33,072 bases of DNA from Pseudomonadota bacterium. GTDB taxonomy: Bacteria; Myxococcota_A; UBA796; CAJQPC01. The position numbers and the translations under genes are program-made. The notes below the pieces were generated by a model. The model saw only the letters and a list, made by a program, of their open reading frames with translations. It did not search any database and had not been told where the DNA came from. Positions 95-13,786 of this stretch are shown piece after piece (the first letter of the stretch is position 1; each line of letters starts with the position of its first letter). The stretch is taken from contig JBEAVX010000691.1 in assembly GCA_041160755.1 (NCBI GenBank), forward strand, positions 1 through 33,072, read 5' to 3'.

Positions 95-1438
95 TCACTC
101 GCTCTTGGACCGCTCCAAGAGGCGACGCTGACGACCTCGAACGTTGCTGGACTGGATCAAGCCATCGTAGTGCTTCGTGAGCATGTGCCCCTCAATCTGC
201 GCCACGGTGTCCAACGACACGCTGACGACGATGAGCAGGCCGGTGCCACCGAAGTAGAAGGGGATCCCATACTGCGTGATCAACAGGGTCGGGATCACAC
301 AGACAGCCGCGAGGTACAGGGCGCCGCCCAACGTGAGCCGACTGAGGATCCGGTCGATGTACTCAGCGGTCTGGCGACCGGGGCGAACACCGGGGATGAA
401 CCCACCCTGCTTCTTGAGGTTGTCCGCCACGTCTACGGGGTTGAACGTCACCGCCGTGTAGAAGTAGGCGAAGAAGACGATCAGCCCAACATAGACCGTG
501 TTGTACAGCCAAGCGCCAGGCGTGAACGCCCCGACGACGCGCCCCAGGATGGCGTTGTCGCTGTTGAGCAGGGTCGAGAGGGTCGCGGGGAACATCAACA
601 CCGCGCTGGCGAAGATGGGCGGGATCACCCCGGCCACGTTCACCTTGAGCGGCAGATGGGTCTCTTGACCGCCATACACGCGCCGCCCAACCACCCGTTT
701 GGCGTACTGGATGGGCACACGACGCTGGCCGCGCTCAATGAACACGATCCCGACCAGCACGGCGAACATGAAGAGCACGAGCAGGGTGACGCCGAGGAGG
801 TTCATGTCCCCGTTGCCGACCTTCTGCGCGAGCTGGTACGCCCCAGTCGGTAGCCCCGCGACGATGCCCGCGGTGATGATGAGCGACGAGCCGCTGCCGA
901 TGCCGCGCTCGGTGATCTGCTCACCAAGCCACATCACGAAGCAGCTCCCGGCCGTCATGGTGATCATCGTCATGAGGCGAAAGCCCCACCCGACGGCGAT
1001 CACGACCGACTCCCCGTTACCGACCTTCATCTGCTCCAGGCCCACGGCGATGCTGCCAGACTGGACGAGCGCGATGACGATCGTGAGGTAACGGGTGTAC
1101 TGGTTGAGCTTGTTGCGCCCGGTCTGCCCCTCTTTGGACAGACGCTCGAGCTGCGGCACCGTGGAGCTCAACACCTGGATGATGATCGAGGCGCTGATGT
1201 ACGGCATGATGCCGAGCACGAAGACGCTGAACTGCTCAAGGGCGCCACCCGAGAACATGTCGTAGAGTCCAAACAGCGTGTTGGACCCCGACTGAAAGAA
1301 CTCGGAGAGCGCCGCCCGATCCACCCCGGGAGCCGGGATGAAGATCCCGAGCCGATAAACCGCCAGCAACGCCAGCGTGAAGAAGATGCGACTCCGGAGG
1401 TCCGGCATCTTCCAGACATCGGCCAGGGATGAGAACAC
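95..1438 (-). CDS. secY: Preprotein translocase subunit SecY
   Basis: Multi-TM protein with SecY signatures (RIFFTLALLAVYRLG, FSVFVLGIMPYISASII, YGGQ.THLPLK). The preferred start is GTG at 1438, since GAGGAG lies 7 nt upstream and it sits 1 nt after the rplO stop. The ATG at 1462 would overlap rplO by 23 nt. Confidence 0.95.
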   Translation of the reverse strand: MFSSLADVWKMPDLRSRIFFTLALLAVYRLGIFIPAPGVDRAALSEFFQSGSNTLFGLYDMFSGGALEQFSVFVLGIMPYISASIIIQVLSSTVPQLERLSKEGQTGRNKLNQYTRYLTIVIALVQSGSIAVGLEQMKVGNGESVVIAVGWGFRLMTMITMTAGSCFVMWLGEQITERGIGSGSSLIITAGIVAGLPTGAYQLAQKVGNGDMNLLGVTLLVLFMFAVLVGIVFIERGQRRVPIQYAKRVVGRRVYGGQETHLPLKVNVAGVIPPIFASAVLMFPATLSTLLNSDNAILGRVVGAFTPGAWLYNTVYVGLIVFFAYFYTAVTFNPVDVADNLKKQGGFIPGVRPGRQTAEYIDRILSRLTLGGALYLAAVCVIPTLLITQYGIPFYFGGTGLLIVVSVSLDTVAQIEGHMLTKHYDGLIQSSNVRGRQRRLLERSKSE

Positions 1439-1439
1439 G

Positions 1440-1892
1440 TCAGATCTCCTCAGCCACACCACCAGCCGCTACGATCTTCGCGCGAGCCGTCTCGCTGAAC
1501 TTCGCAGCCTTGATGGTGAGAGCGACTTCGAGCTCACCAGCCCCGAGGATCTTGAGACCATCGCGACCAACATACGAAACGTGGCCACGCGACTTGAGAC
1601 CGTCAAGATCGACCACATCACCCGCAACATAGCGGCCGTTGAGGTCGCCGATGTTCATGATGGTGTAGTCCTTCGCGAAGATGTTCGTGAAGCCACGCTT
1701 GGGGAGGCGCCGCTGCAAGGGCATCTGACCGCCCTCGAAGCCCGGACGCACACCCTCACCGGCGCGGGAGCCCTGGCCCTTCTGGCCACGACCCGAGGTC
1801 TTGCCCTTACCAGAGCCCTCTCCACGACCGACGCGCATGCGCTTCTTGGTGGAGCCGGGGACCGGCTTGAGGTTGGAGAGTTCGTTCGCCAT
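1440..1892 (-). CDS. rplO: 50S ribosomal protein L15
   Basis: MANELSNLKPVPGSTKKRMRVGRGEGSGKGKTSGRGQKGQ is the canonical L15 N-terminus. I chose the internal ATG at 1892 rather than the ORF-track start at 1964. Confidence 0.95.
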   Translation of the reverse strand: MANELSNLKPVPGSTKKRMRVGRGEGSGKGKTSGRGQKGQGSRAGEGVRPGFEGGQMPLQRRLPKRGFTNIFAKDYTIMNIGDLNGRYVAGDVVDLDGLKSRGHVSYVGRDGLKILGAGELEVALTIKAAKFSETARAKIVAAGGVAEEI

Positions 1893-1976
1893 CTGAAACT
1901 CCAGAGTCGAAGAGAAGACAGGCGCGGCGCAGGACCAGCGAATGCAAGCGCCGCCCATCCTCACCTGCGGGCCTGA

Positions 1977-2162
1977 TCAGGCCTCGACTTCCTCGACATG
2001 AACGAGATGAATGACCTTCTTGACCATGCCACGAACCGAGGGGGTGTTCTCGAGCACCCGGGAAGAATGAATCTTCCGGAGCCCGAGCCCGATCACGGTC
2101 GCGGTCTGGCTATCCGTGGTGCCAATCGTTGAACGGGTCAACGTGACCTTGAGCATTTTCAC
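1977..2162 (-). CDS. rpmD: 50S ribosomal protein L30
   Basis: 61 aa, [11 protein letters not shown]...Q..T...LGLRK motif, positioned between S5 and L15. GTG start with AAGAGG 7 nt upstream. Confidence 0.9.
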
Positions 2163-2206
2163 GGCGAAACCTCTTGCGTTCTCACGCGCTCAGCCCGACG
2201 CCCGCA

Positions 2207-2758
2207 TCACGCGGAGCGCCAAACCCGCGCGCCGACGTTGTAGTTGGAGAGCACCTTGTCGAGGTCCTGGTTGGTCCGAACCGCGAACTGCTCCGGCGAC
2301 TCAAGCTGCTCCAGGGCAGCGAAGGTCGCGCGCACCACGTTGTAGGGGTTGCTGGAGCCCAGGCTCTTGGAGAGGACGTTGCGGTAACCGACGGCGTCCA
2401 TGATGGCGCGCACAGCCGGACCCGCGATAACGCCCGTACCCGGAGCCGCAGGACGAAGCACAACGGTACCCGAACCATACTCGCCACGGCTGATGTGCGG
2501 CACGGTGCCGTCCACCATCGCGACCTTGAGCAGGCTCGCCTTGGCCTTGTTCGTGGCCTTGCGGATCGCCTCGGGCACCTCATTGGCCTTGCCCATGCCT
2601 ACGCCGACCTGCCCCTCGCCGTCGCCGACCACGACGATCGCCGAGAAGCTGAAGCGACGGCCGCCTTTGACGACCTTCGCGACGCGGTTGACATGGATCA
2701 CTTTCTCAATCAGACCGTCATCAGCATCCTGACGACGACTGCGGGATACCTTGTTCAC
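2207..2758 (-). CDS. rpsE: 30S ribosomal protein S5
   Basis: [39 protein letters not shown] motif. GTG start preceded by GGAGGA. Confidence 0.95.
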
Positions 2759-2791
2759 TTGAATCCTCCGCTGCGGGCCATCGCCAGTCGC

Positions 2792-3160
2792 TTAGAAGTC
2801 GAGACCACCCTCACGAGCAGCGTCGGCGAGCGCCTTGACGCGACCGTGATAGAGATAGCCGTTGCGGTCGAAAACGACCTTGGTGACGTTCGCGGCGGCC
2901 GCCTTCTCCGCGAGGAGCTTGCCGACCGCTGCAGCCGCGTTGATGTTTCCACGATGCCCCTCAAGCTCCTTGAGCTCGGGGGACCGGGTGGAAGCCGCGA
3001 CGAGGGTGTGACCACTCTCGTCGTTGACCACCTGGGCGTAGATGTGGGACGCGCTGCGGAAGACGGTGAGGCGCGGACGCTCCACCGTGCCGCTCACGCG
3101 CTTACGAATCGAGACCTTGCGGCGCTCACGCGCGACCTGAGAGGGATTGGTCTTACCCAT
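2792..3160 (-). CDS. rplR: 50S ribosomal protein L18
   Basis: RPRL.VFRS..HIYAQV......TL.AAST and [24 protein letters not shown] motifs. AGGAG upstream of the ATG. Confidence 0.95.
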
Positions 3161-3169
3161 GGCGCACTC

Positions 3170-3709
3170 CTACTTCTTCGCGGACTTGCCGGCCTTGAGC
3201 CGGACACGCTCACCCTCATACCGCACACCCTTCCCCTTGTAGGAGTCAGGAGAGCGGTAGCCACGGATGTCCGAGGCGACCTGGCCGACGGCCTCCTTGT
3301 CAGCTCCCGACACGACGATCTTGTTCGCCTTGGTGTCGACAGAGATGGAGATCCCGGCAGGGGGCGAGAACTCGATTGGATGGGAATAACCGAGGCTAAG
3401 GACCAGCTTGGGGCCCTTCATCTCGGCCTTGTAGCCGACGCCGATGATCTCGAGCCGACGCTCGAAACCCTTCGTGACGCCAACCACCATGTTGCTGAGG
3501 AGCGCGCGCATCAGGCCATGGTTGGCCCGAATGTTGCGCTCCTCGGAGCTGCGGTGAAGGTGAGCGGCGCCACCGGACTGCTCAATCGTGATCCCCTCGA
3601 CGAGGACACGCTCAAGCCGGCCCTTGGGCCCGCTGACCACCACGTTGTCCCCAACCGTGAGCTTTACCCCGGCGGGAATCTGAACAGGCATCTTACCTAC
3701 GCGCGACAT
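3170..3709 (-). CDS. rplF: 50S ribosomal protein L6
   Basis: MSRVGK.P..IP.GV, GY.HP and Y.GKG.RY.GE.V..K.GK motifs, in spc-operon order. Confidence 0.95.
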   Translation of the reverse strand: MSRVGKMPVQIPAGVKLTVGDNVVVSGPKGRLERVLVEGITIEQSGGAAHLHRSSEERNIRANHGLMRALLSNMVVGVTKGFERRLEIIGVGYKAEMKGPKLVLSLGYSHPIEFSPPAGISISVDTKANKIVVSGADKEAVGQVASDIRGYRSPDSYKGKGVRYEGERVRLKAGKSAKK

Positions 3710-3727
3710 GACAGACTCCTATCCCTG

Positions 3728-4126
3728 CTACCAGACGTAGCAGAGCAGCTCACCGCCAACGCCCGCGTGGAGCGCTTGCTGGCCGGTAAGCACGCCCTTC
3801 GGCGTAGTGAGGATGGCGAGGCCAAGGCCGTTACGGACACGCGGGATCTCATCGCGACCCACGTATTTCCGGCAACCAGGCTTGGAGACACGGTCAAGCC
3901 CGCGGATCACTCCACGGTTGGCCGCGTCGTAACGCAGGAAGATCTTGATCTGCCCTTGGGGACCCTCGGGAACATCAATGAAGCCCTCGATGAAGCCCTC
4001 CTGCTTGAGGATCTTCACCAGCTCCAGCTTGATCTTTGACCGGGGCACCACGACCGTGGGATGACGCGCCTGGCTGGCGTTCCGAATCCTGGTCAGCAGG
4101 TCTGCGATCGGATCGGTCATCGACAT
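3728..4126 (-). CDS. rpsH: 30S ribosomal protein S8
   Basis: [21 protein letters not shown] and GG.LCYVW C-terminus. AGGAGAG Shine-Dalgarno. Confidence 0.95.
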
Positions 4127-4220
4127 CAGAACTCTCCTATACGGTGCTGGTTTCTCATGCGTTTTGCACGAGACCTACCACCGACCGGGCCAATGAAGCT
4201 CGGCTAACGATCTCAGCGAA

Positions 4221-4406
4221 CTACCAGCTTGCCTTGGTGACGCCAGGGAGCTCGCCCCGAAGCGCCATGTTCCGCAAGCAGATGCGACACAGGTCAAAGT
4301 CACGGTAGTAGGCCCGGGGCCGACCGCACACCTTGCACCGGTTGTGCTGGCGGGTCGAGAACTTGGCCTTCCGCTGAGACTTCGCGATCATGGACTTTTT
4401 GGCCAT
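4221..4406 (-). CDS. rpsN: 30S ribosomal protein S14, short zinc-binding (type Z) form
   Basis: 61 aa with CxxC-N12-CxxC ([20 protein letters not shown]) and a GVTKASW C-terminus. Confidence 0.95.
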
Positions 4407-4415
4407 GAGCTACTC

Positions 4416-4958
4416 CTAGGAGCGGAACGGGAAGCCGAGGCTGACCAGGAGAGCCCGGGCCTCAGCGTCCGTCTTCGCGGTGGTGACGAAGGTGATGTTC
4501 ATCCCGTGGATCTTCACGACCTTGTCGTAGTTGATCTCAGGGAAGAGGATCTGCTCAGTGAGCCCGAGCGAGTAGTTGCCCCGACCATCGAACCCCTTGG
4601 GGCTAAGCCCACGGAAGTCACGAATACGGGGAATGGCCACCGAGAGCAGCCGGTCAAAGAAGTGCCACATACGGTCGCCGCGAAGCGTGACCTTGGCGCC
4701 GATGGCCATGCCCTCACGAAGCTTGAAGTTCGCGATGGACTTGCGCGCACGGCGGATGAGGGCCTTCTGACCCGTGATCACCGCCAGCTCCTCAGCCGCC
4801 GTATCGAGCAGCTTCTGGTTCTGGATGGCCTCCTTGATGGAGGTGTTGACCACGATCTTCTCAAGGCGAGGAACACACATGATGTTGGTGCTGCCAAGCT
4901 CTTGCTTGAGCTTAGGCACCAGCTCGGTCATGTACCGTTCTTTGAGGCGGGGAACCAT
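4416..4958 (-). CDS. rplE: 50S ribosomal protein L5
   Basis: [13 protein letters not shown]....[17 protein letters not shown] motifs. Confidence 0.95.
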
Positions 4959-4984
4959 GAGGGGAATCTCCTATCGACCGATGC

Positions 4985-5308
4985 TCAATCGAGCAGCGCG
5001 CCAGTCTTACGATCGACCCGGACCTTGCGACCATCCTCGGCGACCTTGAGGCCAACCTTGACGCGGCTCTGCAAGGACTCGCTCCAGAGCGCGACGTTCG
5101 AGATGTGAATCGCGGCCTCTTTCTGAATGATCTGGCCAGGCTGTTCGCCCGCGCCCTTCTGGTGGCGCTTGACGAGGGCAACGCCCTCGACAACAACCCG
5201 AGAGTCCTCAGGGATGACCGTGAGGACCTTGCCCCGGCTCCCCTTGTGACGGCCCGCGACAACCACTACGGTGTCGCCACGCTTGATCTTAAATTTGGGC
5301 GCCGACAT
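4985..5308 (-). CDS. rplX: 50S ribosomal protein L24
   Basis: KIKRGD.V.V..G..KG..GKV KOW motif, positioned between L14 and L5. Confidence 0.95.
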   Translation of the reverse strand: MSAPKFKIKRGDTVVVVAGRHKGSRGKVLTVIPEDSRVVVEGVALVKRHQKGAGEQPGQIIQKEAAIHISNVALWSESLQSRVKVGLKVAEDGRKVRVDRKTGALLD

Positions 5309-5325
5309 GGCACGCTCCTGAGCTG

Positions 5326-5694
5326 CTAGAGGACTTCGGGAGCCAAAGACACGATCTTCATGTACTTCTTGGCGCGAAGCTCACGCGCCACAGGTCCGAA
5401 GATACGAGTGCCGATGGGCTCTCCATCCTTGTTGATGAGGACGGCAGAGTTGTTGTCGAAACGGATGTAGGTGCCATCGGGGCGGCGAACCTCTTTGCTG
5501 GTCCGCACGATGACGGCTCGCGCCACATCGCCCTTCTTCACCTTGCCGTTGGGGAGCGCCTCACGAATCGAGACGACCACAACGTCACCAATCGACGCAT
5601 ACCGACGACGAGAGCCGCCGATCACCTTGATGGTACGGAGCTTCTTGGCGCCGCTGTTGTCTGCGACCTCCAAGACCGTGAGATTCTGGATCAT
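5326..5694 (-). CDS. rplN: 50S ribosomal protein L14
   Basis: MIQ....[10 protein letters not shown]...IKV.GGS.RRYA.IGD and [25 protein letters not shown] motifs. Confidence 0.97.
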
Positions 5695-5739
5695 AAGTCC
5701 TCCGACTTCACCCGGCTTGCCAGGCGAGCGACTCGAACA

Positions 5740-6009
5740 TCAACCGTGGTGGGGACGCCGCTCGACGACAAGCCAGCGCTTGGTGCGAGAGAGAGGACGA
5801 GACTCCTGGATGACGACGATGTCGTCAAGCTGGCACTCGTTGGCCTCATCGTGCGCCTTGAACACGTTACGGCGGTTGACGTACTTCTCGTACTTGGGAT
5901 GCTTGACACGCCGGACGACCTCAACCGCGACGGTCTTGTCCATCTTGTTGGAGACGACACGACCGGTCAGCAGGCGACGGCCCGAACTATCGCTGTTCTC
6001 TGCGGACAT
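5740..6009 (-). CDS. rpsQ: 30S ribosomal protein S17
   Basis: L.GRVVS.KMDKT..V.V.R.VKHP.Y.KY..R....KAHDE.NEC..GD.V.I.E.RPLS.TKRW motif. Confidence 0.95.
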
Positions 6010-6209
6010 TAGATCTGCTCACATGTGCAGAATACGCCGACGATGAACGCCAACGCGGGTTACTGGTGCCCTGGCGGGTCTCCCACCGAAGTAGGACTCA
6101 GACCAGGAGAGTATCGTACTACGTACCGGAGGAACCACCCGACCCGGTACCATGAACATCGAAGGACGAGAGAGCGGAGCCCGACACGCTCGGCATCGGG
6201 CACTGCTAC
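6010..6209 (-). other. 200-nt structured non-coding spacer inside the S10 operon, between rpmC and rpsQ
   Basis: No credible ORF. Helices read from the sequence: GTACCGG/CCGGTAC (6123-6129/6144-6150), CCUAC-UUCG-GUGGG on the transcript (6082-6095), and GCCCGA/TCGGGC (6179-6184/6196-6201). Third-position GC bias is lost here. Confidence 0.45.
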
Positions 6210-6527
6210 TTACTCGTTACCGCCGGCCTTGTCAACCACACCCTTGAGGAAGGACGATCCCTCCTGCCGACCACCGAGGGCCTGGGCCTGGAACGTAGAC
6301 TTAAACCGGTCCCGCAGGCCGTTCGGGGCGAGCCCCTGGGCCAGCTCGCGGGCGCGAGCTGCGGTCTGAACGCGGGCGATGTCCTTCCGGATCTTCTTCA
6401 GCTTGGAGTTGTCGTCCAGCTGGTTGGTGAAGAGCCGAAAACGAAAGGCGGTGAGCTCGCGCTCAAGCGCCAGCTCCTTGTGAACAAGCTGCTCGTCAGA
6501 GAGGCTTGTGAGCTCAGTGTACTTCAT
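6210..6527 (-). CDS. rpmC: 50S ribosomal protein L29 with an atypical C-terminal extension (105 aa)
   Basis: [37 protein letters not shown]...KKIRKDIARV is a normal L29 core. The ATG at 6527 shares 1 nt with the rplP TGA (TGATG overlap). The reading frame continues about 43 aa past the usual end. Confidence 0.9.
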   Translation of the reverse strand: MKYTELTSLSDEQLVHKELALERELTAFRFRLFTNQLDDNSKLKKIRKDIARVQTAARARELAQGLAPNGLRDRFKSTFQAQALGGRQEGSSFLKGVVDKAGGNE

Positions 6528-6943
6528 CAGATGACCCCTTCCCGCTTGACGACACGCCACTCAAGCGGAAGCTTGTGGCCAGCGCGACGAAGAGCCTCCA
6601 TCGCTACGTCCTCGGCGACACCCTCGATCTCGTACAAGACGCGACCAGGCTGAATCACCGCGACCCACAGCTCAGGAGCGCCCTTACCTTTACCCATTCG
6701 GGTCTCGGCCGGCTTCTTGGAGATGGGCTTGTCCGGGAAGATCCGGATCCAGACTTTGCCACCGCGCTTCACGTGACGGGTCAGCGCGATACGCGCCGCC
6801 TCAAGCTGACGTGCGGTGATGCGGCCACAACCTGTGGCCTGAAGAGCAAACTCGCCGAAGGAGACGTCGCTGCCGCGGTACGACAGCCCATTCATCCTGC
6901 CCTTCTGCTGCTTGCGGTACTTGACACGCTTGGGAGACAGCAT
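6527..6943 (-). CDS. rplP: 50S ribosomal protein L16
   Basis: [19 protein letters not shown] and RMGKGKG.PE.WVAV..PGR.L.E motifs. I prefer the ATG at 6943, because the GTG at 6955 abuts the Shine-Dalgarno. Confidence 0.95.
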
Positions 6944-6973
6944 GGTACTGAACACTCCTGGGCCAGGACGGCC

Positions 6974-7615
6974 TCAACGCTCATCGTCACCGGGCAGAAT
7001 TTCACCCTTGAACACCCAAACCTTGACGCCAATGACACCGTAGGTGGTCTTCGCCTCGGCGAAGCCGTAGTCGATGTCGGCACGGAGGGTGTGTAGGGGA
7101 ACTCGTCCCTCGTGGTACCATTCACGACGAGACATCTCAGCCCCGCCGAGACGCCCGCTGCACATAACCTTGACACCCTTGGCGCCGGAGCGCGTCGCCT
7201 GGGTCATCGCCTTCTTGAGGGCGCGACGGAAGGACACACGCTTGACGAGCTGGGCCGCGATGTTCTCGGCCACGAGCTGCGCGTCGGTCTCAACCTTCCG
7301 AACCTCAACGACGTTCGGATAGATCTCGGTGGACGTGAGCTTCTGCAGATCGCTGCGCAGGCTCTCAAGCCCGGTCGCGCGCTTGCCGAGGATGATGCCA
7401 GGCTTCGCCGCGTGGATGAACACCTTCGCCTTGTTGGCGGCGCGCTCAATGGTCACGCGAGAGATGCTCGCCTGAGCATACTTCTCTTTGACGTACTTCC
7501 GGATCGCGATGTCCTCATGGAGGAACCGCTGGTAGTTCTTGTCGGCATACCACTGGGCATCCCAACCACGAACGATGCCGACTCGGAAGCCGACAGGGTG
7601 AACTTTTTGACCCAT
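6974..7615 (-). CDS. rpsC: 30S ribosomal protein S3
   Basis: MGQKVHP.GFR.GI...W...W.A and [29 protein letters not shown] motifs. Confidence 0.97.
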
Positions 7616-7621
7616 GACGAC

Positions 7622-7975
7622 TTACTCCTCCCGCGTCCCAAGGACCACGGTGATGTGGGCGGTCTGCTTGCGGATCGGGGTGGCCCGTCCCTGCGCGCGA
7701 GGCCGGAAACGACGAAGTGTGGTGCCCTGGTCCACCATGATCGACTTGACGTACAGAGCGTCGATGTCGACCTCGCTGGACTTCACCTTGGAGGTGTGCT
7801 CGGCGTTGGCGACGGCCGACTCGATGAGCTTCTTGATGAGCGGGGCGGACTTCTTGTTGGTGAACGTCAGCACCTCAAGCGCCTGCCCAACATCCCGACC
7901 GCGAATCAGATCGGCCACGAGGCGGGCCTTCTGGGCCGACACCCGCGCGAATCGGAGAATGGCTGTAGACTCCAT
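7622..7975 (-). CDS. rplV: 50S ribosomal protein L22
   Basis: [20 protein letters not shown] and RAQGRA..I.K...HITVVL motifs. Confidence 0.95.
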
Positions 7976-8059
7976 TTGATGACCCTTTCGCTTCGTGAGC
8001 GAAGTGATGGGTGGCTGTGGAGCGCTGGGGCCGCGACTGTAGCGCGACCCCTCGCGCGC

Positions 8060-8341
8060 TCAGCGCACCTTTGTTTTCCGATCCGCGGCGTGGCCGAAGA
8101 AGGTACGGGTAGGGGAGAACTCGCCGAGCTTGTGCCCGACCATGTTCTCCGTCACATACACAGTCACGAACTTTTTACCGTTGTGAACTGCGAACGTCAA
8201 CCCGATGAAGTCGGGGAGGATGGTTGAGCGCCGGCTCCAGGTCTTGACGACAGGGGCGCCTTGGCCGGAGCTCCGGGCGAGGACCGCCTTCTTCTCCAGG
8301 TGGGCATCCACAAAGGGGCCCTTCTTGATTGAGCGTGCCAC
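8060..8341 (-). CDS. rpsS: 30S ribosomal protein S19
   Basis: [52 protein letters not shown] motifs. GTG start with AGGAG. Confidence 0.95.
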
Positions 8342-9499: not shown

Positions 9500-10123
9500 T
9501 CACCTCCCCAGCCGCGACACGATGGAGTCGACCGCAGCGCTGGTGACCGCGATGTTCTTGTGCTTGAGCACGTCGTAGACGTTGAGCCCGGCGACCGGCA
9601 GCACCTGCACATCGGGAAGGTTGCGAGCCGACAAGTAGACGGCGCTGTCCTTCTCGGGCAGGATGAGCAGCAGGTCATCGAAGCCGAAGCTGTCCATCAC
9701 CTTACGAAACTCCTTGGTCTTCACCGCGGAGAGCTCGAAGGCGTTGAAGACCGTCAGCTTGGACTCTTGCACGCGCCGAGAGAGGGCGCAGCAGAGGGCC
9801 GCACGACGGACCTTCTTGGAGACCTTGAAGCCGTGGTCCCGGGGGGTCGGCCCGTGGACGACACCACCGCCCCGCATCTGGGGGGCGCGGATCGTGCCTT
9901 GACGAGCGCGGCCGGTCCCCTTCTGCTTGAAGGGCTTGCGGCCACCGCCGGACACCTCGCACCGGGACTTCACCTTGTGGGTGCCGGCGCGACGGTTGGC
10001 GAGCTGGTACCGCACCACCGTGTAGAAGAGGTGCTCTTTCACTTCAACGCCAAAGATGTCGTCGGGCAGCTCGACTGAGCCGACGGTCTCCTTGGCTGTG
10101 TTGACTACGTCAATCGTAGGCAT
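9500..10123 (-). CDS. rplD: 50S ribosomal protein L4
   Basis: [31 protein letters not shown] motif. Its start lies only 84 nt downstream of the rpsJ stop. Confidence 0.95.
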
Positions 10124-10207
10124 CTTTGAGCTCCATCGTGACGCCAGTTCTCCACCCTTGAGATCAAGGATGTGGCGCCCGACTGAATCAGTGGGAAGGG
10201 TGTCCGC

Positions 10208-10522
10208 TCAGGACAGCTTGATCTCGACGTGAACACCAGCCGAGAGGTCGAGCTTCATGAGCGCGTCCACGGTCTGCTGGGTGGGCTCAAGAATGTCGAG
10301 GAGGCGGTGATGCGTGCGGCGCTCGAACTGCTCACGGGACTTCTTGTCGACGTGAGGGCCACGAAGAACCGTCCAGCGGGAGACCGTCGTGGGCAGGGGA
10401 AAGGGACCGCGGATGCGCACGCCAGTGCGTCGAGCGGTCTCCACGATCTCCCCAGCGCTCCGATCCAGCAGCTTGTGGTCGTAGGCCTTGAGACGAATAC
10501 GAATCTTGTTGGTGCTGGCCAT
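10208..10522 (-). CDS. rpsJ: 30S ribosomal protein S10
   Basis: [14 protein letters not shown]...IVETA.RTG....GP.PLPT and R.H.RLLDI..PT..TVDALM.LDL.AGV.V.I motifs. Confidence 0.97.
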
Positions 10523-10648
10523 GAGATGACGGTCCTGTTCGTTTCTGACGTACCAGCCTGCTCGGGGGTTGTCCGGCGCGGCGGGCTCGATGGATTCGGG
10601 CTGATCGGGGTGGATGTCCAGGAGGGGCGGACAGCGACTCCGAGAAGA

Positions 10649-10678
10649 CGCAACAACCGCGCTTAGCCGGTCGTTGCG
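10649..10678 (-). promoter_or_regulatory. Hairpin in the 247-nt EF-G-like/rpsJ spacer (terminator of the upstream gene or an S10-leader-type attenuator)
   Basis: Transcript: CGCAACGACCG-GCUAAGCG-CGGUUGUUGCG (11 bp including one G-U) followed by UCUUCUC. It lies about 125 nt upstream of the rpsJ ATG. Confidence 0.4.
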
Positions 10679-10769
10679 GAGTTGGCCACCCTGAAGATCA
10701 CCTTTCCCCTCTCTGCCGCATCGGCGGCGCGGTTGGGGGCAGGTTCAGGAGGGCTCATGCGCATGGTGG

Positions 10770-12863
10770 TCACGGTTCGCTCTTTACACGATCACCCACG
10801 AGGGGCTCGAAGATGAGGCGAGAGAGCTTGGGGGGCGCGGGGGAATGACGGGAGAACTGGATGCTGGCCGACGAACGGCCTTGTGTGGCCGATCGCAGCG
10901 CGGTTGTGTAACCAACCAGCTCGGCGAGGGGCACGTCGGCCTCGATGACCTGTAGCGGCGGTCTCGGCGTCGTCGAGGTGACGATCCCGCGTCGCGCCTG
11001 GAGGTCACCCAGGACCCCGCCCATATAGTCGCCCGGCGTGCGAACCTCAAGGCGCATGATCGGCTCCATCACCATGATCGACGATCTTTTCAGCGCGTCG
11101 TCCAAGGCGAGGCCCGCCGCGACCCGGGCCGCGATCAGCGCTCCAGGCCCTGGCTCACACGATCCACCGCTCACGGAGACCCGCGCGAAGGCCAGCGGGG
11201 CCCCTCCGCCGAGGGCGTTCTCCACCCCGGCACGAAGCGCGCTGACGATCGCCTCGGCGTAGTCTTCAGGCAGGGCGATCGCCGCCCAGCCGGGCTCGAT
11301 GCTCACCAGAGGCACGTCGGGCTGCAGCGTGAGCCGAACCTCAAGCGTCGCGCGTTGTTCACCCGCGCTGGTCACCAGGCGGTGGCTCCCCTCCCCCACC
11401 GCGCTGACGCTCGGCGCCAGCAGGTAGGTGACCCGAGGCTGGCCCACACGAAGGGCGAGGCCGTGCTCCCGTCGCAGGCGCTCGACGGCGATCTCCAGGT
11501 GCAGCTCGCCCATGCCCTCCAGCACACGCTGGCCCGTCTGAGGATCGACGGTGAGGCGCAGGGTGGGGTCTTCTAGCAAAGGGCGCTGGAGCGCGGCGTT
11601 GAGGCGCTCTTCGCTCTCGACGGTCTCGGCCTCGATCACGACGCCGAGCACCGGCGACGGGGGCGTGAGCGGCTCCAGGAGCAGCGGAGCGCCGGGGTCG
11701 CAGAGGGTGTCGCCCGTGATCGGGTGGGTGAGCCCAGCGACGACGGTGATCGCGCCCGCCTCGGCGACGCTCACCGGCTCCAGCTCCTCGGCGTGGGCGG
11801 CGAAGAGCTGGGTGATCGTCTGCTGCGCGCCCGTGCGCGGGTTGAGCACGACGTCCCCCACTCGCAAGGCGCCCGAGTACACCCGGGTGAACGCGAGCAG
11901 GCCCTCGTCCCGATCGTGAACGAGCTTAAACACGAGCGCGCAGGCACGCTCCGAGAGCTCGGGGCGGCGACGCTCAGACGTACCCCGTCCCATGGCGCTC
12001 ACGCCGTGGCAAGGCCCCACGTCCGCCGGGGAGGGCAGAAGCTCGATCACCGCGTCCAAGAGGGGCTGCACGCCCTGGTGGTGCTTCGCCGCGCCGCAGA
12101 AGACCGGGACCAGCGCCCCCTCCAGCACACGTTGGCGCGCGTCGGCGTAGAGGTCGGCGGGGCTCACCTCTCCGGTGGCGAGGTATCGCTCCATGACCGC
12201 GTCGCTGTGCAGCGCGGCGTTGAGGAGCGCCTCGCGGCCAAAGGCGAGCTCGACCTCCAGAGACTCAGGCACTGGCGCGGCCTGCACGATCACGCCGCGG
12301 TCTTGGCGGGTGAACGTCAGGAGCTTGGCGTGGACGAGGTCGAGCACGCCGAGCAGGCGCCCATCCTCGACGACGGGGAGCTGAAACGGCACGGCGGGGG
12401 CGTTGAGGCGGCTCTGCAGGTCGGCGAGGCAGCGGTCAAAGTCGGCGCCGACCCGATCGAGCTTGTTGATGAACACCAGGCGCGGCACCCCGCGCGCGTC
12501 CGCCTGGGCCCAGACGTGCTCGGTCTGCGGCTGCACACCTTCGCTCGCCGAGAGCACGACGATCGCCCCGTCGAGCACTCGGAGCGAGCGCTCAACCTCG
12601 ATGGTGAAGTCGACGTGCCCGGGGGTGTCGATGAGGTGGATGACATGATCACGCCAGCCCACGCGCGTCGCGGCGGCGCCGATGGTGATGCCCCGCTCGC
12701 GCTCCTGGACCATAAAGTCCATGGTCGCCGTGCCGTCGTCCACCTCCCCGGGGATGCGGATGCGGCCCGTCGCCATGAGGATCCGCTCGGTGAGCGTGGT
12801 CTTCCCGGCGTCGATGTGGGCGAGGATGCCGATGTTTCGAATGCGGCGGATCATCGGGTCCAT
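10770..12863 (-). CDS. Divergent elongation factor G paralogue (translational GTPase, EF-G family)
   Basis: G1 AHIDAGKT, G2 RGITI, G3 DTPGHVDF, G4 NKLD, domain II TGDTLCD, and domain V PLAELVGYTTALRS.TQGR are present. The EF-G domain-IV motifs KQSGGRGQYG and SYHDVDSS are replaced by RLVTSAGEQRATL and GSCEPGPGA. The gene occupies the fusA slot after rpsG. Confidence 0.85.
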   Translation of the reverse strand: MDPMIRRIRNIGILAHIDAGKTTLTERILMATGRIRIPGEVDDGTATMDFMVQERERGITIGAAATRVGWRDHVIHLIDTPGHVDFTIEVERSLRVLDGAIVVLSASEGVQPQTEHVWAQADARGVPRLVFINKLDRVGADFDRCLADLQSRLNAPAVPFQLPVVEDGRLLGVLDLVHAKLLTFTRQDRGVIVQAAPVPESLEVELAFGREALLNAALHSDAVMERYLATGEVSPADLYADARQRVLEGALVPVFCGAAKHHQGVQPLLDAVIELLPSPADVGPCHGVSAMGRGTSERRRPELSERACALVFKLVHDRDEGLLAFTRVYSGALRVGDVVLNPRTGAQQTITQLFAAHAEELEPVSVAEAGAITVVAGLTHPITGDTLCDPGAPLLLEPLTPPSPVLGVVIEAETVESEERLNAALQRPLLEDPTLRLTVDPQTGQRVLEGMGELHLEIAVERLRREHGLALRVGQPRVTYLLAPSVSAVGEGSHRLVTSAGEQRATLEVRLTLQPDVPLVSIEPGWAAIALPEDYAEAIVSALRAGVENALGGGAPLAFARVSVSGGSCEPGPGALIAARVAAGLALDDALKRSSIMVMEPIMRLEVRTPGDYMGGVLGDLQARRGIVTSTTPRPPLQVIEADVPLAELVGYTTALRSATQGRSSASIQFSRHSPAPPKLSRLIFEPLVGDRVKSEP

Positions 12864-12929: not shown

Positions 12930-13400
12930 TTACCAGCGGTAGTGCGCGAACGCCTTGTTGGCCTCGGCCATACGGTGGGTCTCGTCCTTCCGCTTCACCG
13001 CGTTGCCGCGGTTGTGGGAGGCCTCGATCAGCTCGTTGGCGAGCTTCTCTTGCATGGACCGGCCGCTGCGCTTGCGGGCGAAGATGATGATCCACCGCAT
13101 CGCGAGCGCCATACGACGATCGTTGCGGACCTCGATCGGCACCTGGTAGGTAGAGCCACCCACGCGGCGAGACTTGACCTCCACCAAAGGAGAGACGTTC
13201 TCAAGCGCCCGCCGGAAGACCTTGATGGGCTCCTCGCGGGTGCGATCCTCGATGACATCGAACGCACCATAGACGATGGACTCGGCGACAGCCTTTTTTC
13301 CATCTTCCATCACGGCGTTCATGAACTTGGTCACCGCCTTGTCCCCAAACTTGGGGTCAGGCAGCACAATACGCTTGGGGACTTCGTGACGACGAGGCAT
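12930..13400 (-). CDS. rpsG: 30S ribosomal protein S7
   Basis: MPRR......I.PDPKFGD..V.KF.N..M..GKK..AE.I.Y.A and AFAHYRW C-terminus. Confidence 0.97.
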
Positions 13401-13411
13401 GGATCAGAACC

Positions 13412-13786
13412 TTACTTCTTGGGCCGCTTGGCGCCGTACTTGGAGCGGCCCTGGCGCCGGGCGTTGACGCCCTGGGAGTCGAGGGTGCCGCGGATGATGT
13501 GGTACCGAACGCCAGGCAGGTCCTTGACGCGACCACCACGAATGAGCACCGAGGAGTGCTCTTGGAGGTTGTGGCCCTCACCACCGATGTAGGCGGTGAC
13601 CTCCATGTCGTTGGTGAGACGAACACGGGCGACCTTACGGAGCGCCGAGTTGGGCTTCTTGGGGGTGGTCGTGTACACACGAGTGCAGACGCCGCGCTTC
13701 TGCGGGCAGCCCATGAGGGCGGGCGACTTGGACTTGGTCGCAACCTTCTGCCGTCCCTTACGGACGAGCTGGTTGATGGTGGGCAT
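13412..13786 (-). CDS. rpsL: 30S ribosomal protein S12
   Basis: [40 protein letters not shown] and [28 protein letters not shown] motifs. Confidence 0.98.

Follow-up and report, generated by a model that had tools for sequence, protein, structure and literature searches.

We hold with high confidence that the direct junction of the S10 gene (rpsJ) to the L4 gene (rplD) in this genome, without the L3 gene (rplC) between them, is an ancient, inherited trait found lineage-wide in Myxococcota, and that the relocation of rplC that goes with it is real and single-copy. New in this work are a candidate r-protein leader on the relocated rplC, a quantification of the trait together with its exceptions, and parallel cases in other phyla.

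The rplC slot of the S10 operon is empty

The window, by which we mean the whole stretch of 33,072 nt that was analysed, carries the S10 and spc clusters on the minus strand. On the S10 side, rpsL (13412–13786, minus strand) and rpsG (12930–13400, minus strand) lie upstream and are followed by an EF-G-like gene (10770–12863, minus strand; Pfam GTP_EFTU, EFG_III, and EFG_C) directly upstream of rpsJ; the 247-nt gap between the latter two genes (10523–10769) contains no tuf. The rpsJ ORF (10208–10522, minus strand, 104 aa) matched Pfam PF00338 at 6e-37 and NCBIfam rpsJ_bact with 145 bits against a cut-off of 73, and the rplD ORF (9500–10123, minus strand, 207 aa) matched PF00573 at 3.5e-69 and rplD_bact with 248 bits; both are bacterial equivalogs that score over their NCBIfam cut-offs. 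Between them, at the site of rplC in most bacteria, we found a spacer of 84 nt alone (10124–10207, minus strand), which includes the Shine–Dalgarno sequence of rplD (GGAG, 10131–10134). The genes downstream of rplD are rplW (L23; 9197–9496, minus strand; PF00276, 8.7e-31), rplB (L2; 8356–9180, minus strand; Pfam L2_N and L2_C), and those for S19, L22, S3, L16, L29, and S17, followed by the spc genes for L14, L24, L5, S14, S8, L6, L18, S5, L30, L15, and SecY (95–8341, minus strand). Every ORF from 10123 to 95 thus has a Pfam assignment, and the succession is the canonical one.

The earlier note had reported that rplC is missing from the slot between rpsJ and rplD, that no ORF anywhere in the window resembles L3, and that the remainder of the S10/spc cluster is intact and in canonical order. 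The first statement was borne out by the ORF table, the sequence itself, Pfam, and NCBIfam, and the third by Pfam as far as SecY. For the second, a six-frame tblastn search of the window with the genome's own L3 protein returned two spurious matches of 17–18 aa (E = 2–3), both outside the slot, in agreement with the claim.

A single intact L3 gene lies elsewhere in the genome

The whole-genome search for L3 that the earlier note had proposed was run and found a single intact gene elsewhere, showing that rplC was relocated rather than lost. This gene encodes a bacterial L3 protein of 214 aa on another contig (G000:C748:6193–6837, minus strand), and its match to TIGR03625 (262 bits against a cut-off of 142.9) covers profile positions 1–202 of 202, i.e., the full length. 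Searches with the Pfam HMM and with protein sequence gave an L3 copy number of one in the 914-contig assembly, which at 90.6% completeness leaves room for a second copy. The L3-bearing contig is 7.6 kb long, and its GC content and third-position GC agree with those of the rest of the genome. Two CoA-transferase subunit genes begin 65 nt downstream of rplC, and a divergent membrane-protein gene lies upstream. The same four-gene neighbourhood was present in three other genomes of the genus, with L3 proteins that were 97–98% identical, which speaks against mis-binning of the L3 contig. Mis-binning is conceivable in principle in a metagenome-assembled genome (MAG) of 914 contigs, but is opposed both by this same-genus synteny and by the linkage of L3 and L4 on single contigs in relatives, described below. 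In this genome, to judge from those relatives, L3 is probably some tens of kb away from the S10 operon.

Several observations concern the neighbourhood of the stand-alone gene. A scoA/scoB-like CoA-transferase pair (L002, 4778–6127; also L008, L012, L014–L017, L032, and L114) is the neighbour of stand-alone rplC not only in several genera of family f1 but also in f4 and f8; in some genomes it is inversely oriented. Behind the rplC stop codon and ahead of the Shine–Dalgarno sequence of the first CoA-transferase gene are two stable hairpins (L002, 6128–6200, minus strand), of which one, GUGAUCC-GCUGA-GGAUCAC, overlaps the stop codon and the other is capped by UUCG; no U-run comes after either of them.

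The S10–L4 junction is shared across the order and most of the phylum

The comparison of synteny with relatives that had also been proposed gave a uniform result at the level of the order. Of 40 relatives at the genus, family, and order levels, 39 had a single L3 gene, which in one of them was returned as two adjacent fragments, and one genome had no match. S10, L4, and L23 were absent beside L3 in all 30 order-level L3 loci examined with 1.5-kb flanks, and S10 lay directly upstream of L4 in all 30 order-level L4 loci. The same-order genomes include NCBI record OZ245034.1, entitled 'Myxococcota bacterium'. In nine genomes L3 and L4 shared a contig, on which they were 27–47 kb apart and on opposite strands. 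The exception was genome G025, in which L3 shares the strand of L4, 12.6 kb downstream of it, and comes right behind rplQ and a Fur-family gene. Two further features of G025 were observed: rplC stands at the end of the alpha operon (L381, G025:C161 11615–14671) with the leader described below still present (29.8 bits), and rpoA comes immediately after rpsK, rpsD being absent between them.

Beyond the order, L3 loci with 3-kb flanks were stand-alone in 57 of 60 genomes of the phylum, representing about 40 families, and the order S10-L3-L4-L23 was kept by only three families (f16, f25, and f29) among the Myxococcota sampled. As a side observation, both the L3 gene and its leader are of the type seen in family f1 in a public MAG entitled 'uncultured Enterobacterales bacterium' (L033, CAZSZE010000069.1), the label of which is probably wrong.

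These comparisons bear on the possibility that the gap is an assembly artefact, with rplC dropped at a mis-join of a fragmented MAG. The 914 contigs and 90.6% completeness of the assembly and the location of L3 on a separate 7.6-kb contig are what such an error might leave behind, but the same 84-nt junction, nearly identical in sequence, recurs in three independently assembled genomes of the genus, all 30 order-level relatives have L4 immediately after S10, and several relatives carry L3 and L4 on one contig at a distance of 27–47 kb. We regard an artefact as having virtually no chance of being correct.

The earlier note had described the gap as a clean excision or relocation of a single gene. 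Relocation stands, with an intact L3 gene found elsewhere; an excision that is recent or specific to this genome does not, given that 30 of 30 relatives from the order have the junction and that L3 stands by itself in 57 of the 60 phylum genomes sampled. Because the junction and the stand-alone L3 are common across both order and phylum, the arrangement is an old, inherited state. In an early ancestor of most Myxococcota, rplC would have left the S10 operon and rpsJ would have been joined directly to rplD. We infer a single origin of the relocation from parsimony over families.

The 84-nt spacer is a genus-specific intergenic region

Only the four genomes of this genus have a spacer of 84 nt between S10 and L4; the other genera have 7–62 nt. 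A recent event confined to this genome or genus, be it excision or transposition of the gene, with the spacer as its scar, could account for a spacer that is longer than in any other genus examined and that contains a stem-loop. Against it, the junction and the stand-alone L3 are common to the order and most of the phylum, tblastn with the genome's own L3 detected no L3 remnant in the spacer, and the spacers of sister genera are 7–13 nt long, so that a clean junction predates the longer spacer of this genus. We consider such an event extremely improbable, and the description of the spacer as scar-like in the earlier note fails on the lack of an L3 remnant and on the restriction of the 84-nt length to one genus. 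The spacer is an ordinary genus-specific intergenic region.

The bulged hairpin that had been noted at 10152–10175 exists, but on the mRNA strand it is better read as an 8-bp stem, CAUCCUUG-AUCU-CAAGGGUG (10153–10172, minus strand), with AUCU as the loop, stacked on a second stem of 7 bp, GGCGCCA/UGGCGUC, the whole spanning 10140–10179 (minus strand). The minimum-free-energy fold of the spacer, a long imperfect stem-loop, has −35.4 kcal/mol (z = −1.77) and does not differ significantly from chance, as 14 of 200 shuffled sequences folded at least as well. Part of the rplD GGAG is taken up in the base of the stem. Two apical pairs of the hairpin are compensatory among the four genomes of the genus (AU to CG; UG to UA or CG), which lends weak support to a real hairpin. 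No U-tract terminator was found within 9900–10800, the stem being followed by GAGAAC/ACGAUGG, and the spacer contained no sigma-70-like promoter. At most, the stem-loop may affect mRNA stability, processing, or access to the rplD ribosome-binding site.

Two other structures were seen in this context. In the minimum-free-energy fold of the spacer, the UGA stop codon of rpsJ lies in the loop of a 5-bp hairpin, UGUCC-UGAGC-GGACA (10201–10215, minus strand). The longer spacers of other genera (58–62 nt; L184, L199, and L200) also contain GC-rich hairpins, which are unrelated in sequence to that of the window.

Stand-alone L3 in other phyla and its origin

An S10–L4 junction with L3 elsewhere was also present in four more MAGs, a Bacteriovorax, an Oligoflexia, and two labelled Gemmatimonadota and Latescibacterota. 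In a sample of 30 Bdellovibrionota genomes (L218–L247), 14 had a stand-alone L3 and 16 the canonical arrangement. The Gemmatimonadota- and Latescibacterota-labelled MAGs belong to one phylum in the genome collection, and the other sampled members of that phylum were canonical in 22 of 22 cases. Among the loci of other phyla with a stand-alone L3 are L050, L067, and L098. To call the rplC slot near-universal, as the earlier note had done, is therefore an overstatement, since the S10–L4 junction also occurs in a small lineage of another phylum and in about half of the Bdellovibrionota sampled.

In a phylogenetic tree of L3, all stand-alone proteins formed one cluster (109 of 191 rows; SH-aLRT 83), and a second tree gave a stand-alone cluster of 62 of 107 rows with support of 84/89. 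Three changes of state suffice to explain these trees. The canonical Myxococcota families (f16, f25, and f29) fell outside the cluster, with Desulfobacterota-like sequences. This topology would be consistent with xenologous displacement, in which a stand-alone L3 was gained horizontally, the operon copy was then lost, and the stand-alone gene later spread to part of the Bdellovibrionota and to the small lineage of the other phylum; three stand-alone L3s labelled Gemmatimonadota or Latescibacterota also sit inside the cluster, even though 22 of 22 other members of their phylum are canonical. The tree supports are weak, however, for a protein of 210 aa, an AU test does not reject a tree that unites the L3s of the other phylum, whether stand-alone or canonical (p = 0.31), the named outgroup loci, selected for their similarity to the genome's own L3, give a biased picture, and the position of L3 relative to the operon varies between phyla, consistent with independent relocations. 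Weak supports, similarity-picked outgroups, and the result of the AU test lead us to keep displacement only as a rival account of the origin, unlikely but deserving of consideration. Separately, the tree position of G225 and G226 hints that their phylum received the stand-alone L3 by horizontal transfer, an explanation that we set aside as unsupported by the AU test (p = 0.31).

A conserved candidate leader precedes the stand-alone rplC

The moved rplC appears to be an expression unit of its own. An alignment of the sequences upstream of L3 in the family contains a conserved TTGCC block and, after ~17 nt, a TA block, followed by a variable region; to judge from their sequence and spacing, these blocks are promoter-like. 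A simple sigma-70 scan upstream of L3 in the genome itself and a strict scan for TTGAC-N17-TAnnnT upstream of L3 across the order both returned no promoter.

Abutting the start codon is a conserved motif, 5′-CGUA-(C/A)-GA...(variable hairpin)...UC-C(A/U)A-UGCG-(A)GG-N5-8-AUG, which in this genome lies outside the window at G000:C748:6835–6887 (minus strand; locus L203) and was described by a covariance model, R1. The motif consists of a helix P1 (CGUA/UGCG), an asymmetric internal loop in which CAA faces a single C or A, and a hairpin P2 that is variable and covaries. On the 3′ side of P1, its UGCG strand is continuous with a GAGG or GGAGG Shine–Dalgarno sequence 5–8 nt before the AUG. An independent RNAalifold prediction from 30 sequences gave both P1 and P2, and 6 of the 10 pairs showed compensatory changes. 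In an alignment of 100 sequences, 95.4% of cells were paired, compared to 86.3% in shuffled alignments, and slid controls collapsed; the covariation score was 0.176, compared to 0.060 in shuffles, and none of 500 shuffles scored as high. Changes on both sides were seen in five of the six pairs of P2, whereas P1 and the internal loop are invariant, so that pairing in P1 is inseparable from plain conservation of sequence.

The model is specific for the L3 gene. In the genome itself R1 had one match, at the L3 leader (55 bits, E = 2e-13), with a runner-up at E = 0.16. Across the order it matched 123 of 141 genomes, once in each except in two, and 106 of 109 matches examined were immediately upstream of an L3 ORF; the remaining three were the weakest (E = 8e-5 to 3e-3). 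With filters off, the leader was also detected in two apparent misses, G025 and G036. The element is thus a structure in the 5′ untranslated region that is backed by covariation, specifically associated with L3, and adjacent to the ribosome-binding site, the properties expected of an r-protein leader. Rfam 15, applied to the window and the L3 contig with gathering and E-value thresholds, returned only tRNAs and noise and left the leader unmatched. R1 found no matches in other classes of Myxococcota or in other phyla with a stand-alone L3, indicating that the linear form of the leader is specific to the order.

A related element occurs in family f11, which is outside the order. In eight genomes from five genera (L383–L390), the leader reads GCUUC-CAA-UGC-(variable hairpin)-GUA-(C/A)-GAAGC and is a circular permutation of the same core, with the open and closed ends exchanged. 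Both forms share a helix of U-A/G-U/C-G pairs and a one-by-three internal loop, in which CAA faces C or A and which is closed by G-C/A-U pairs, and one f11 genome has a compensatory outer helix, GCUAC/GUAGC. A promoter of the form TTGAC-N17-TAnnnT lies 102–106 nt upstream of rplC in all eight genomes, and the leader is located ~40–85 nt upstream of rplC, with the core 7–9 nt from the Shine–Dalgarno sequence. In families f8 and f9 the resemblance is limited to the outer CUUCC...GAAG helix, the interior being different.

Possible functions of the leader

The candidate leader could be an operator by which L3, or some other factor, would set L3 synthesis at the level of translation, and such control might replace the L4-mediated control of the operon that covers rplC in E. 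coli. We consider a regulatory role for the leader quite possible, at a little less than an even chance. L3 is the most likely ligand of the candidate leader because rplC is the only r-protein gene downstream, following the logic applied to other r-leaders (PMC7247131). In its most specific form, the proposal is that the leader is an L3-binding operator that would have arisen because L3 left the L4-controlled operon, with its core preserved in two permuted scaffolds of sister lineages; this, too, we put forward tentatively, as a plausible reading that falls somewhat short of even probability. An internal-loop core kept in two connectivities is what the binding site of a trans-acting factor would show.

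The leader may, on the other hand, be unresponsive to L3 and serve only as a strong ribosome-binding region, as an mRNA-stabilising hairpin, or as the site of another regulator, an explanation to which we assign nearly even chances. It is consistent with the finding that the most conserved bases adjoin the Shine–Dalgarno sequence, and with the failure to detect rRNA mimicry: comparison of the leader, by R1 and by word searches, with the 23S rRNA of two same-order genomes (the MAG itself has no 23S rRNA) gave no match, these tools being suited to a contiguous mimic and not to a discontinuous, three-dimensional one. Mimicry of rRNA by the leader is unsupported. Less easily reconciled with an element that is not L3-responsive are the invariant bases outside the Shine–Dalgarno sequence (CGUA, GA, and UCC.AUGCG), which flank a covarying hairpin, and the f11 leader, which keeps the internal-loop core in a permuted topology 7–9 nt from the Shine–Dalgarno sequence, unlike what Shine–Dalgarno context alone would give.

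Implications and comparison with known systems

For annotation and quality checks, our results mean that a gap at rplC is normal for Myxococcota and is not a signal of deletion, incompleteness, or mis-assembly. They also make the S10-L3-L4 order unsafe as a universal synteny anchor, since it is broken in the same way in most of Myxococcota, in about half of the Bdellovibrionota sample, and in a lineage of a third phylum. As a rare genomic change, the stand-alone as opposed to the in-operon position of L3 is a possible marker for deep branches within Myxococcota, three families of which have the ancestral order. Finally, the location of an early-assembly protein outside the operon regulated by L4 poses a question of stoichiometry, to which the conserved leader is a testable candidate answer.

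The canonical bacterial S10 operon has the order rpsJ-rplC-rplD-rplW-rplB-rpsS-rplV-rpsC-rplP-rpmC-rpsQ. Compared to it, the operon in the window retains all genes but rplC, with order and strand unchanged, and runs into spc; it differs in that rpsJ is joined directly to rplD. In E. coli the S10 operon is autoregulated by L4 via the S10 leader (PMC3616713); with rplC outside the operon, L3 is not co-regulated with the S10 operon through co-transcription. Compared to other Myxococcota, the S10–L4 junction and the stand-alone rplC are alike, whereas the 84-nt spacer with its stem-loop is peculiar to this genus. A literature search, which was incomplete and is therefore no proof of absence, found no description of a phylum-wide S10–L4 order.

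In cyanobacteria, plastids, and archaea the cluster is split at S10/L3, S10 moving off while L3-L4-L23-L2 stay together. The link between rpsJ and rplC is broken there as it is here, but in Myxococcota L3 alone left, and S10 and L4 became joined. Genes for S4 are found outside the alpha operon in whole lineages (Chen et al., 2009, PMC3087516), and Myxococcus, Sorangium, and Bdellovibrio are tabulated with two S4 copies (PMC3087516). In that case there are paralogous zinc and non-zinc forms, and the copies outside the operon have been attributed to horizontal gene transfer (PMC3087516). Both cases place a universal r-protein gene outside a conserved operon, but there is a single L3 copy here, and horizontal transfer is not supported statistically.

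The closest parallel to the rplC leader is provided by r-leaders, autoregulatory structures in the 5′ untranslated regions of r-protein genes (Fu et al., 2013, PMC3616713; Eckert and Weinberg, 2020, PMC7247131). A table of 20 candidate r-leaders lists none with L3 as ligand (PMC7247131), and no literature on an L3 leader was found in a search that was likewise incomplete and no proof of absence. The candidate rplC leader resembles r-leaders in being backed by covariation, in lying in the 5′ untranslated region beside the Shine–Dalgarno sequence, and in having the sole r-protein encoded downstream as its presumed ligand.
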